From a virus (taxonomy: Duplodnaviria > Heunggongvirae > Uroviricota > Caudoviricetes), in IMG/VR virus record IMGVR_UViG_2711768022_000003: a stretch of 9,905 nucleotides of DNA; one strand, given 5' to 3'. This document shows, in pieces, positions 1 to 6,106 of the stretch. The notes under the pieces are model-generated. The model made no database searches. It had not been told where the DNA came from and was given only the letters and a program-made list of their open reading frames with translations. The stretch's first letter is position 1; each line of letters starts with the position of its first letter. Made by a program: the position numbers and the translations under genes.

Positions 1-17
1 GCCTGTCCAATGTGCAT

Positions 18-50
18 AAAAAAATCCGGAAACAAGTGAGCGTTTCCGGA
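18..50 (-). terminator. Intrinsic terminator-like hairpin just downstream of the portal stop
   Basis: Perfect 9-bp inverted repeat tccggaaac (25-33) / gtttccgga (42-50) with 8-nt loop; on the minus strand the stem is followed by a run of 7 T (complement of A-run 18-24). Confidence 0.55.
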
Positions 51-84
51 TTCTTACACAGCCACTGGATCGGTCAACTGATCC

Positions 85-1332
85 TTAACTGATCGGCATT
101 ACACCACCGGGACGCGGATTCATATCTTCCAGGTCGCGGCAGTCATTGGAAGAGTAAATTCCCCAGTTGATCCCGGTGGCGTAGGCTTCAAAACGGGACT
201 TCATATCCCCGCGCAGTAACGCCCCGGCGTTAAATTTGGCGTAATAAACGCCCTGCTTACTTTTTCGTACCAGTCCGGTGTTGATCCGCTGTTCGATGCG
301 GGTCAGATACGGCACCAGTGAATAGTTGATAAATCCCAGCCCCAGCTCTTCGATATTGTTGAAGGTGGCGCGATCGGTGTTCTGCACCATGTGCAACGGC
401 ACCCGGAACAGACGACAGATTTCTTCCAGCTGAAACTTGCGGGTTTCCAGGAACTGACTGTCCTCGGCGTTCAGCGCCATCGACTTCCAGTCCAGCCCCA
501 TTTCCAGAATCATCGGGCGGTGAGCATTGCCAAGCCCCGTGTGACACTCCTCAAAATCTTTCTTCAGACGCTCGTAAGCATCCGGCGTGAGCTTTTGTTC
601 CGTACGCAACACACCGGATGTCACCGCACCATTACTAAACAACCTGGCACCGTGCTCCTCGGTTGCCGCTGCCAGTGAAATGGCCTCACGCGCATACGCA
701 ATGGGATTCAGCCCGACAAGTCCATCCAGCGTCAGGGTGCGCACATGCCAGATTTCATTCTGGGTCAACACATCCACGGAACCATCCGGAAACGTCACCT
801 GATAAACCGGCTGCCACTGGCTGTTCAGCTTCGGTTCCACACAGCCCGGATCTATCGGAAGAAGCTCCACCACTTCTCCCAGTGCCTTTACCTTGTAGGC
901 GTAAAAATTCCCCCGTAGACACAGGCAGACAATAACCAGCTCCCAGAATTCCTGCGGTGTCATGTAGCCATTAGGTTTTGCCGAAACCAACTTATGCAGT
1001 CGTTCATCCACCGCCCGTGTTTTCAGGGTACCGCTGATTTTGTAGAGACTGCAGGGCAGCATACCAACAGACTCTGCCAGCACCCTGACGCAAGAATAGA
1101 CCGCCGTCAGGCGCATGGCCCGCTGGCTACTGATCCGCTTTCCGGTATAGGTGTCGTATGACAGCCCGATAGCATCAGCAGTTCTGCTGGCGTGGTCACC
1201 GGCACATCGCTTTTTCGTTGAAATAATCCCGAAAAGAACACTATTTACCTCCGCCGACAGACTGCCGTGTACGGTCGAGATATCGCGCCACCAGCCACGA
1301 CCAGAACAGGCACAGCGCCCCGGCAACAACAA
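85..1332 (-). CDS. Phage portal protein, HK97 family (start codon unresolved)
   Basis: Long minus ORF immediately after terL. Translation carries portal-like segments (NSVLFG near the N-terminus, [55 protein letters not shown]). The listed start at 1330-1332 is TTG; the first in-frame ATG is at 1114-1116, after conserved-looking N-terminal sequence, so 1332 is an upper bound. Confidence 0.8.
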
Positions 1333-1423
1333 AACCCGCCGGGGGATAAATCAGCCAGGCACCATACGCCAGCAAAAGCGCACCCAGCACGCCCACCAGA
1401 GGCGCGAGAATCAGCATGATCAT
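1241..1423 (-). CDS. Small hydrophobic protein (60 aa, two predicted TM segments), hypothetical
   Basis: ATG at 1421-1423 preceded by GAGGT with 4-nt spacing, 11 nt after the terL stop. Translation [60 protein letters not shown] is strongly hydrophobic. It overlaps the 5' end of the maximal portal ORF in another frame. Confidence 0.45.
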
Positions 1424-1434
1424 AATTACCTCAG

Positions 1435-3168
1435 TTAAAGCGAGCGGATCCCGTAGGACTCAATGTGGTCAGACAGCGTGTCTTCTTTCTCGTACAGCAT
1501 GGCTCTGCCAACCGCCATAATCAGCGCAACTGCACCATCGATTTTGTTTTCCGCCTGCTCTTTGACGGGTTTCACCACATCATCGTTACCCGGCATGTTT
1601 TTGCCGACCACGTTGCCGATACACCAGGTCATGATGGGATTGCCGTCATGATGAAAACGTCCCGATTCAATCGCTGCTTCCAGCTCTTTCATCGGATCGG
1701 ACATATTGGTGAAGTTCTGGACGATAGTGACGGGATTCAGGTCTTCATCAGCAAGGTCATGTGACAACCCGGTCGCCCCGAAGGGGTCGATGGGTGACTC
1801 ACTGACCGGGCTGATTTTGTTCGCCGCTTTGGCCTCCTCGAGGATGTAGCGATAATCCACCTCCGCACCATCGGTAACGGTCAGAACGCCCATTTCCACC
1901 CATTTCTGAAAGCGTTCGGCTGTCCGTCGATCTTCATTTTTCTCGACGCTGTACACCGTGTCATACGGTACCCAGAAACGCGGGGCCACACTGTAGTAAT
2001 GCGTTTTACCGTCAATCTCGCGGGTATAAAGTCGCGCCATGCTGTTCATATCCAGCTTACGCGCCAGGTCAAAGGCCAGAATGCACGGCTGCCCCTCGAA
2101 CTGCTCAAGGGTCAGTGATTTATCCTCGCAGCTCTGCCAGCTCACCAAGTTGAAATACGCCGAACGCGCCGACACCCAGATATTGAGGTGTTTTGTTTTA
2201 AAGACGTTTGCCAGACGGGCGTTATTTTTCGCACGCTGCTGCTGACTTAACAAAAATTCGCGATAAACCGACACGCCAATATTTGGATTGGCTTTTTCCA
2301 GCACCTGCGGGCCGGTCCAGTCGTCACCTTCATCAACGGTATAGATGATCCCGAACAGTTCATCGTTAGGCACCGAGCCGTTGAGCATCTCGATGACTTC
2401 CCGCCGCTTGTCGTAGCACGGCCCCTCAATGTTGTACCCGGCGGTGGTGATGGCCCACATCAGTGGCTGACGTCGCGCCCCCATCCCGGTAAGCATTGTG
2501 GTATAAAGCGCATCGGTGGCATGCTCGTGATATTCATCAACCACGGCACAGTGGGGTGATGAACCATCACCTGGGTTGCCGATCAGCGGTTCAAACCGCG
2601 CGCCATCCTCCGGACGGTTCATGTTTGAGGCGTTAACCTCAATCCCGAACGCTTCCGTCAGCATGGGTGTGCGTTTACACATCAGTCGCGCCGGGCGAAA
2701 GACTTCCCACGCCTGTTTCTCTGTCGTGGCACCGGAATACACTTCCGCGCCAAACTCGTTATCACAGGCAAAACAATACAGGGCAACACCGGCAGAGATT
2801 GCTGATTTGCCGTTCTTACGGGGGATTTCGGTGTACACCTCCCGGAAGCGGCGCAACCGGGTGCCTTTATTGACCCAGCCAAACGCACAGCAGATCACAA
2901 ATAGCTGCCACGGCTCCAGCGTGATGGGCATCCGTTTGAATGCCCACTCCCCCTTGGTGTGCGGCAACAGCTGAATAAATTTCGCGGCCCGTTCAGCCAG
3001 GTCCTTGTCGAAGCGGTAACGAAACGACTTACTTTTTTCCGCCATCAGGTCATCAAGATGGCGCTGGCAGGCCTGAATCACAAACTGGCAGGCAACAATC
3101 TTTCCGCGCACGACATCCCGGGCATACTGATTTGCAGCATTTACGTTGGGGTAAGATTTCCGGCTCAT
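1435..3168 (-). CDS. terL: Terminase large subunit (577 aa)
   Basis: 577-aa ORF with ATG start overlapping the terS stop (ATGA at 3165-3168). Size and position between terS and portal fit a phage large terminase; assignment is by gene order and overall resemblance, not by a motif I can cite exactly. Confidence 0.9.
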
Positions 3169-3659
3169 GATTCGATAATTTTCAGAAACGGGTTAGTGGC
3201 TTTCTTCTGCCCCGCCAGGCCAATCAGACGCTGGCGGCTGCTGGGGTCGAGTCCGAGCATTGCCCCCGTGCTGCTCATCTCGGACTCCTGTTCTTTTTTG
3301 GCGGTCAGCTCCGGATTTTTGACCCTGCCGCCCATTGCACCGGTGATGGTGTTGCCCTGTATGGCAATATTTTTCACGGCACGTCGCCAGAACTCATAGG
3401 CCACGCACCACCGCTCAAGTACCGCCAGGTCAGTCACGCACAGCAGGCCCTGACCGCAGAGTTCTTTGGTTGTCAGTTGCCACATGATCGTGGCGAGAGG
3501 GAGATCTTCTTCAGCGAACCACTCTGGTGGCTCAACACCTTTGATGGGCGTAAAAACAGGTTCATCTTTGTTCAGGGCTCGCTTGCCGGGGTTTCCGGCC
3601 AGCGCCTTGCGCGCCGTTGGCTTGGGGCGACGCCCGGAACGCCCCGCCGTTCCAGCCAT
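3165..3659 (-). CDS. terS: Terminase small subunit, P27-like (164 aa)
   Basis: ORF-track start at 3668 is GTG directly abutting the SD. ATG at 3657-3659 has AGGAG 8 nt upstream and gives [20 protein letters not shown]..., a basic Gly/Arg-rich N-terminus typical of P27-family small terminases. Stop overlaps the terL start. Confidence 0.85.
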
Positions 3660-3693
3660 ATGCGGCACTCCTGGTTAAATTTCATTTTTCGCG

Positions 3694-3761
3694 GGTATAA
3701 AAAAACGATGGGGCGGGCAGTCCGGAAGACGTCAGGTCACAGGGATTTGCCCCGCCCCTCC
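3694..3761. other. Putative cos region or structured element between HNH and terS
   Basis: GC-rich inverted repeat ggggcggg (3710-3717) / cccgcccc (3751-3758) flanking a 33-nt spacer that contains gacgtc and tccgga palindromes, with an A-run at 3694-3705 (T-run on minus). In HK97-like phages cos lies between the HNH gene and terS. Confidence 0.3.
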
Positions 3762-3780
3762 CTACAAGTGAGAATAATTA

Positions 3781-4131
3781 TCACCGGATTCGTTCGCGCG
3801 CTGTTTTCGCTTTATGGCAGGGCCAGCACAGACTCTGCAGGTTGCTGTCTGCGTCTGTTCCGCCATGCGCTTTCGGGATGATGTGGTCGACGGTTTTCGC
3901 CTCGCTCACCACACCGACACGCAGACACAACTGACACAGACCTTTATCGCGCTTCAGAATACGGGCACGAATCACCGTCCATTTTGAGCCATAGCCACGC
4001 TGGTGGCGGCTCAGTCCGCGCTGGTGCTGCACCCAGCCTTCACCGCGATGTTTATCGCAGTAACCCGAACTGTCTGTGGTTGTACCTGCACATCCACGCT
4101 TACGGCAGGCACGTGGGATTAGTGATGGCAT
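3781..4131 (-). CDS. HNH endonuclease (116 aa), terminase-associated type
   Basis: ATG at 4129-4131 with GAGGT 4 nt upstream. Cys-rich N-terminus (CRKRGCAGTTTDSSGYCDKH) and C-terminal HNH signature (DHIIPKAHGGTDADSNLQSLCWPCHKAK). Sits immediately upstream of cos and terS as in HK97-like phages. Confidence 0.9.
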   Translation of the reverse strand: MPSLIPRACRKRGCAGTTTDSSGYCDKHRGEGWVQHQRGLSRHQRGYGSKWTVIRARILKRDKGLCQLCLRVGVVSEAKTVDHIIPKAHGGTDADSNLQSLCWPCHKAKTARERIR

Positions 4132-4173
4132 AAATACCTCATACCCTGCGAAATGTTTACCACGATAAAAAGG

Positions 4174-4420
4174 CTACTTAATGCACTGAGTGCGGATATA
4201 CTCCTGTGCCCCTTCCAGTTGCATCTGCATCGTCATCAGCCGCTCTCTGAGGGTGAAATAATCCCGTTCAGCGGTGTCTGCCAGTCGGGGGCTGGTTGCA
4301 TTATCCACGCCGGAGGCGGTGGTGGCTTCACGCACTGACTGACAGACTGCTTTGATGTGCAACCGACGACGACCAGCGGCAACATCAGCGCGCAGAGTTT
4401 CATTTTCAGCTTTCGCATCA
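4174..4420 (-). CDS. Rz: Rz i-spanin, 3' part only (5' end lost in N gap)
   Basis: Visible 81 C-terminal residues DAKAENETLRADVAAGRRRLHIKAVCQSVREATTASGVDNATSPRLADTAERDYFTLRERLMTMQMQLEGAQEYIRTQCIK closely resemble the C-terminal half of lambda Rz as I recall it. The reading frame runs into the N-run at 4421. Confidence 0.9.
4236..4418 (-). CDS. Rz1: Rz1 o-spanin lipoprotein (60 aa), embedded in Rz in an alternate frame
   Basis: ATG at 4416-4418. Translation MRKLKMKLCALMLPLVVVGCTSKQSVSQCVKPPPPPAWIMQPAPDWQTPLNGIISPSESG has a lipobox (VVGC) and a proline-rich stretch, closely matching lambda Rz1 as recalled. Entirely inside the Rz reading frame. Confidence 0.85.
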   Translation of the reverse strand: MRKLKMKLCALMLPLVVVGCTSKQSVSQCVKPPPPPAWIMQPAPDWQTPLNGIISPSESG

Positions 4421-4810
4421 NNNNNNNNNNNNNNNNNNNNNNNNNNNNNNNNNNNNNNNNNNNNNNNNNNNNNNNNNNNNNNNNNNNNNNNNNNNNNNNN
4501 NNNNNNNNNNNNNNNNNNNNNNNNNNNNNNNNNNNNNNNNNNNNNNNNNNNNNNNNNNNNNNNNNNNNNNNNNNNNNNNNNNNNNNNNNNNNNNNNNNNN
4601 NNNNNNNNNNNNNNNNNNNNNNNNNNNNNNNNNNNNNNNNNNNNNNNNNNNNNNNNNNNNNNNNNNNNNNNNNNNNNNNNNNNNNNNNNNNNNNNNNNNN
4701 NNNNNNNNNNNNNNNNNNNNNNNNNNNNNNNNNNNNNNNNNNNNNNNNNNNNNNNNNNNNNNNNNNNNNNNNNNNNNNNNNNNNNNNNNNNNNNNNNNNN
4801 NNNNNNNNNN
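4421..4810. other. Assembly or masking gap (390 N)
   Basis: Uninterrupted run of n from 4421 to 4810; it interrupts the endolysin and the 5' half of Rz. Confidence 0.99.
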
Positions 4811-5795: not shown

Positions 5796-5870
<75 letters not shown>

Positions 5871-5873
5871 ATA

Positions 5874-5949
<76 letters not shown>

Positions 5950-5951
5950 GC

Positions 5952-6028
5952 TGGCCCACCACCGAGGACTCGAACCTCGCACCGTCAACTTAGAAGGTTG
6001 ATGCTCTATCCGGATGAGCTAGTGGTGG
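5952..6028 (-). tRNA. tRNA-Arg (anticodon UCU), 77 nt
   Basis: CCACCACTAGCTCATCCGGATAGAGCATCAACCTTCTAAGTTGACGGTGCGAGGTTCGAGTCCTCGGTGGTGGGCCA: acceptor CCACCAC/GTGGTGG, anticodon loop CTTCTAA, T-loop TTCGAGT, CCA encoded. Unusual C1-G72 first pair. Confidence 0.8.
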
Positions 6029-6029
6029 T

Positions 6030-6106
6030 TGGTGGCCCTTGCTGGACTTGAACCAGCGACCTGGCGATTATGAGTCGCTCGCTCTGACCAACTGAGCTAA
6101 AGGGCC
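6030..6106 (-). tRNA. tRNA with CAU anticodon, most likely tRNA-Ile2 (lysidine type, reads AUA), 77 nt
   Basis: GGCCCTTTAGCTCAGTTGGTCAGAGCGAGCGACTCATAATCGCCAGGTCGCTGGTTCAAGTCCAGCAAGGGCCACCA. Anticodon arm GCGACTCATAATCGC and T-arm GGTCGCTGGTTCAAGTCCAGC resemble E. coli ileX rather than elongator Met as recalled. Ile-versus-Met identity cannot be settled without a classifier. Confidence 0.8.

Follow-up and report, generated by a model that had tools for sequence, protein, structure and literature searches.

Results

Gene content of the window

The window analyzed here is a 9,905-nt stretch of viral DNA (Caudoviricetes; IMG/VR record IMGVR_UViG_2711768022_000003). Sequence comparison places the region of interest in a Shigella sonnei prophage remnant that is SfII/SfIV/e14-like and has a head module of the HK97 type; the region spans the junction of the terminase, ymfR, and portal genes. 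The window is 100% identical to S. sonnei CP000038.1, which we take to be strain Ss046, over 4420 nt, and only one position differs in another 4126 nt. The same region matches thousands of E. coli prophages, in which the genes for the terminase large subunit, YmfR, and a phage portal protein follow one another in that order. The features of the junction are listed in Table 1.

Table 1. Features of the terminase-ymfR-portal junction in window coordinates
Feature	Position	Strand	Description
Terminase large subunit gene	1435..3168	-	577 aa, intact ORF; TAA stop 1437-1435
ymfR, gene for a 60-aa small hydrophobic protein	1241..1423	-	Intact; 183 nt; ATG 1423-1421; TAG stop 1243-1241
GGAGG Shine-Dalgarno sequence of the portal gene	1248..1252	-	Within the ymfR 3' end; 6-nt spacing to the portal GTG
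True portal 5' end	1180..1241	-	GTG 1241-1239; 1-nt overlap with the ymfR stop (TAGTG); placed by homolog annotations and N-terminal peptides
1-nt deletion site	1178..1180	-	CTGC here vs CTGGC in homologs; one G of GG lost
Portal body in the shifted frame	102..1179	-	Phage_portal/portal_HK97 domain; ends NPRPGG; last ~100 nt absent
Spurious upstream extension of the long ORF	1180..1332	-	Off-frame ymfR and portal 5' end; no counterpart in homolog proteins
IS4 left end	1..101	-	TAATGCCGATCAGTTAAGG..., abuts portal codon ~380

The Pfam families PF03354 and PF20441 are recorded for the identical terminase large subunit product in S. sonnei loci, and homologs of the same gene are annotated as terminase large subunit. 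Farther upstream, an HNH endonuclease gene encoding 116 amino acids (3781-4131, minus strand) lies directly upstream of a P27-family small terminase gene, an arrangement that is also present in the E. coli homologs that we retrieved. The lysis cassette is interrupted by a run of 390 Ns (4421-4810). Because the same 390 nt of S. sonnei CP000038.1 fall inside a phage lysozyme gene (165 amino acids, PF00959), the run is read as masking and not as a real gap. Four adjacent tRNA genes (5796-6106, minus strand: Met-CAT, Arg-TCT, Thr-TGT, and Gly-TCC) are found between a gene encoding an ORF6N-domain protein and the lysis genes, downstream of a gene resembling the Q antiterminator. When window positions 1-1700 were scanned for promoter and terminator consensus sequences, nothing was detected above the expectation from shuffled sequence, and the scan revealed no counterpart of the terminator that is annotated inside the membrane-protein gene of SfII.

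The small gene between terminase and portal had been described in the original prediction as a 60-amino acid membrane ORF with a good ribosome binding site and an ATG start, and this description was confirmed. The ATG is preceded by the Shine-Dalgarno sequence GAGG (1432-1429) with a 5-nt spacer, and two hydrophobic stretches were computed on the 60-amino acid sequence. That exact sequence carries the name protein YmfR in S. sonnei, with at least 1000 contigs on record. Clustering at 90% groups it with the UniProt entry YMFR_ECOLI in a set of 665 members that is found on many thousands of contigs. A position between terminase and portal is common to the genes of E. coli prophages, SfII, and SfIV-like phages, and we assign the protein to YmfR. 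YmfR has no family match in Pfam or NCBIfam, and a literature search found no functional study of ymfR. In one S. sonnei assembly (CP021144.1), a run of five C residues inside ymfR, at the equivalent of window ~1341, is shortened to four and no ymfR is called, which is probably a homopolymer sequencing error of that assembly.

The start of the portal gene

Alignment with homologous portal genes, which had been suggested as the means of placing the portal start, does place it, at the GTG that overlaps the stop codon of ymfR. The comparison set consisted of E. coli prophages A36, STEC276, and C311 and phages SfII (NC_021857) and SfIV-like VIT_AJPSC, with their RefSeq or GenBank annotation. In all five of these annotated relatives, a 183-nt small gene is followed by a 1242-nt portal gene (413 amino acids) with an overlap of 1 nt. 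The N-terminal peptides of the homologous portals match the frame of a GTG-initiated 44-amino acid ORF in the window (1241-1107, minus strand), in which the conserved portal N terminus of 21 residues is encoded. The GGAGG sequence is invariant in the six aligned sequences, i.e., the window and the five homologs. On the basis of the homolog annotation, the N-terminal match, and the invariant GGAGG, the true portal start is this GTG. Annotation, conservation, and the Shine-Dalgarno sequence together point to the same start, overlapping the ymfR stop, in the intact relatives. The first base of the portal GTG would then be the last base of the ymfR stop (TAGTG), an ordinary stop/start overlap in a late operon.

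The 44-amino acid ORF was absent from the original prediction, which held that the conserved portal N terminus lacks a canonical in-frame start. The N terminus is instead encoded in another frame. Homologous portals beginning at the equivalent of the Met codon at 1116 had been named there as evidence that would count against it; the homologs begin instead at the GTG on the ymfR stop.

A one-base deletion in the portal sequence

The long portal-like ORF (1332-85, minus strand) is the longest ORF, with 415 amino acids, and begins at the first of three consecutive in-frame TTG codons. These codons (1332-1324) and the first ATG of the long frame (1116-1114) are present in the sequence as previously described, and the gene call in CP000038.1 uses the second TTG as the start, giving 414 amino acids. 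Portal similarity was thought to begin at NSVLFG; however, in-frame similarity starts only at window 1179 and extends downward from there. When the window was aligned with A36 and STEC276, a single gap was found in the window, at GAACT-GCTGAT, with similarity ending after window 102. With SfII, VIT_AJPSC, and C311 added in a six-way alignment, the gap falls between 1180 and 1179, where the window has GAACT-GCTGAT and the homologs have GA[A/G]CTGGC.GA. The deletion sits 62 bases after the GTG, at codon 22/23.

Loss of one G at this position cuts the true N-terminal 21 codons off from the rest of the gene. The 415-amino acid ORF, its TTG codons, and the missing ATG near the start of similarity are all by-products of the frameshift. 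Upstream of the deletion, the long frame is open for 51 codons (1332-1180), and since we estimate the chance of such a run in random sequence as (61/64)^51, or ~0.09, its freedom from stop codons is not unusual.

Insertion of one G at the deletion site yields a continuous 380-amino acid protein up to window 102. This repaired protein is identical to the E. coli A36 portal at 371 of 380 positions and to the SfII portal at 347 of 380, and it matches the profiles PF04860 (359.2 bits, cut-off 39.1) and TIGR01537 (263.7 bits, cut-off 112.05). The single uninterrupted 413-amino acid ORF of HK97-family portals is broken in the window by the deletion at 1179/1180 and by the IS4 junction at 101/102. 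The portal sequence is a member of the HK97 family by descent, but it is a pseudogene. The small and large terminase genes and ymfR are located upstream, and IS4 followed by chromosomal genes is located downstream.

IS4 and the rearranged flank

Portal similarity ends at window 102, and IS4 takes over at 101. Starting at the terminal repeat, window positions 101-1 are identical to the left end of an IS4 copy in E. coli ME8067, and the last residues of the long ORF (V-MPIS-stop) result from read-through into IS4. In the S. sonnei loci, the product that follows has the Pfam domains Nterm_IS4 (PF13006) and DDE_Tnp_1 (PF01609), and the IS4 right repeat is also found, so that both the nucleotide sequence and the transposase family identify the element as IS4. 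The sequence of the IS4 right junction is ACTGGCATTAGTCCCGGTGGTGATGTC. An IS4 hairpin, AATCCGGAAAC...GTTTCCGGATT, is present within window 1-101.

Insertion of IS4 at window 101/102 removes the last ~33 codons of the portal gene. Neither the portal tail nor the protease was found within ~4.6 kb after IS4 in three S. sonnei loci (L007, L010, and L013), and no protease or capsid gene was found downstream in these three. In four complete S. sonnei genomes (the same three and L011), the right flank of IS4 is unrelated chromosome, from the bamE/recN side or from the raiA/pheL/pheA side. IS4 itself is split by an IS3-family element in some S. sonnei strains.

One IMG/VR scaffold, L020 (IMGVR_UViG_2663762996_000003), which carries the deletion and has 99.9% identity to the window, continues across the IS4 site and into the protease gene. 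At its positions 2819-4217, the join is marked by one N and by the IS4 hairpin loop in inverted orientation, after which IS4 positions 69-1426 follow. At its IS4 right junction, the 12-bp sequence GTCCCGGTGGTG is followed by the portal tail and by protease, capsid, and tail genes, a junction seen only in L020. The same 12 bp also precede IS4 in the window. Their presence on both sides of IS4 suggests that the element originally entered by what was probably a simple insertion that duplicated 12 bp. Differences between the left part of L020 and the window are confined to the vicinity of the contig start (window 2483 and 2470) and of the IS4 site (150 and 103). Because of the N at the join, the inverted hairpin loop, and the restriction of the differences to those places, we think that the run-through probably reflects a second copy or a chimeric assembly. 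L020 may nevertheless still carry the right half of the prophage, which is otherwise missing. If the run-through were real rather than a chimera of short reads, the deletion would also exist without the IS4 insertion; the gene would still be frameshifted, and only the order of events would change.

Distribution of the deletion

An indel sequencing error was among the explanations first proposed for the portal start. The indel stands, as the loss of one G at 1179/1180, and the error does not. One might argue for a sequencing or assembly error that conceals an intact portal 5' end from the location of the single-base gap in a GG dinucleotide and from the likely homopolymer error nearby in CP021144.1 (C5 to C4, window ~1341), but runs of only 2 nt are not prone to homopolymer errors, and the distribution of the deletion speaks against such an error. 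Eight S. sonnei loci, CP000038.1 among them, were fetched by means of the exact terminase protein, which many assemblies encode. The exact 45-nt deleted sequence is present in all eight of these separately deposited assemblies, and six of them match the window without a difference across the 3168 nt between the terminase start and window position 1. Six IMG/VR contigs from different genome projects, all of S. sonnei type, carry the deleted form; five are 100% identical to the window, and the sixth is L020. The 343-amino acid product beginning at Met1116 is called on at least 1000 contigs, and all named cluster members among those listed are from S. sonnei. We consider an error very unlikely.

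The intact form, in contrast, was found on at least 120 IMG/VR contigs, 94 of which give a 413-amino acid ORF from the TAGTG start. To sample E. coli, 60 rows were taken at even spacing over 1390 matching records of complete genomes, which gave 58 full-length matches (56 chromosomes and 2 plasmids), and every one of them has one base more than the query. Strict and degenerate exact-pattern scans of a species-representative genome collection gave no match to the deleted form; Shigella appears to have no representative separate from E. coli in that collection, and the scans cover the representatives of other species. Since the deletion recurs in independent assemblies and occurs in none of the 58 sampled E. 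coli matches, it is, on these comparisons, a genuine mutation that has become fixed in the S. sonnei lineage, not an error of sequencing.

Alternative readings of the long ORF

We also considered whether an N-terminally truncated fragment, for example, the 343-amino acid product from Met1116 with its IS4-encoded tail, is expressed and retained because it benefits the host. Many S. sonnei genomes carry this ORF, open and without sequence differences, and the terminase, HNH, ymfR, and lysis genes upstream of it have kept intact ORFs. However, sequence identity is uninformative about selection in a lineage as young and clonal as S. sonnei; by inspection of the sequence, there is no obvious Shine-Dalgarno sequence before the ATG at 1116, and the locus is rearranged at IS4 in different strains. 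Retention of such a fragment seems to us highly doubtful. A particular form of this idea, in which the fragment or a low-level frameshift product serves as a domesticated decoy against the head assembly of superinfecting SfII/e14-type phages, is just as hard to credit. Were it true, there would be a reason why the intact ymfR-terminase-lysis block has been kept.

The original prediction also allowed for a portal that starts at one of the TTG codons inside ymfR, overlapping it by ~90 nt. The length of the ORF and the gene call of CP000038.1 at the second TTG agree with such a start, but the extension is found in no homolog, and upstream of the deletion its frame is not the portal frame of the intact relatives, which start at the GTG. 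The residues encoded by 1332-1180 match no portal, the Pfam and TIGRFAM matches begin well downstream, and the conserved GGAGG precedes the GTG. A TTG start thus has next to no likelihood. Translational recoding, which the original prediction had raised as an unusual coupling or frameshift arrangement, is equally close to negligible: the two frames overlap over 1179-1107, where a programmed -1 ribosomal frameshift or other recoding event could in principle join the 21 GTG-initiated codons to the portal body and give a near-normal protein, but there is no X_XXY_YYZ slippery heptamer anywhere in 1241-1100, the only runs (TTTT and AAAAA) also occur in homologs that need no shift, the portal is a single continuous ORF in the five annotated homologs and the 94 IMG/VR loci, and the two-frame arrangement is restricted to one clonal lineage, where IS4 interrupts the gene as well.

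Discussion

The portal gene of this S. sonnei prophage is almost certainly a pseudogene, frameshifted near its 5' end and cut by IS4 near its 3' end, and with the same high confidence we regard the puzzle of its start as fully explained. Given the two lesions in the sequence, a functional portal is probably not made in S. sonnei.

The relatives of the junction are well known. The SfI/SfII/SfIV/e14 group is lambdoid and cos-packaging, with HK97-family head genes, and serotype-converting Sf phages of Shigella flexneri have been isolated (PMC3851460, PMC3636060). SfII (NC_021857, SfII_03/SfII_04), SfIV/VIT_AJPSC, and SfI share the gene order of small and large terminase, 60-amino acid membrane protein, and portal. 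The DNA of these phages is 93-95% identical to the window region and has the same TAGTG overlap and GGAGG sequence at the junction. In them, the portal is intact (413 amino acids) and is followed by protease and major capsid genes, whereas the copy in the window has lost 1 nt and is cut by IS4. In E. coli prophages of the e14 type, where RefSeq names the small gene ymfR, this gene and the portal 5' region match the window at 90-95% in 1346 E. coli genomes. The extra G is present in 58/58 sampled matches of this type, and the lesions of the window are specific to S. sonnei. The portal gene of e14 in E. coli K-12 (beeE) is also a decayed fragment beside ymfR, a precedent for the loss of a portal gene whose ymfR neighbor stays intact.

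Five insertion sequences, IS4 among them, have expanded in all Shigella species and contribute to functional gene loss (PMC7373316). The IS4 copy abutting the portal sequence is a typical instance of this insertion sequence-driven gene decay, from which it does not differ.

The locus reveals nothing new about translation initiation or recoding and represents an ordinary dead prophage gene. Its value lies in correcting gene calls: the TTG-initiated long ORF of CP000038.1 and the 343-amino acid entries named portal protein are fragments of one pseudogene, and genes of this portal family properly start at the GTG overlapping the ymfR stop.
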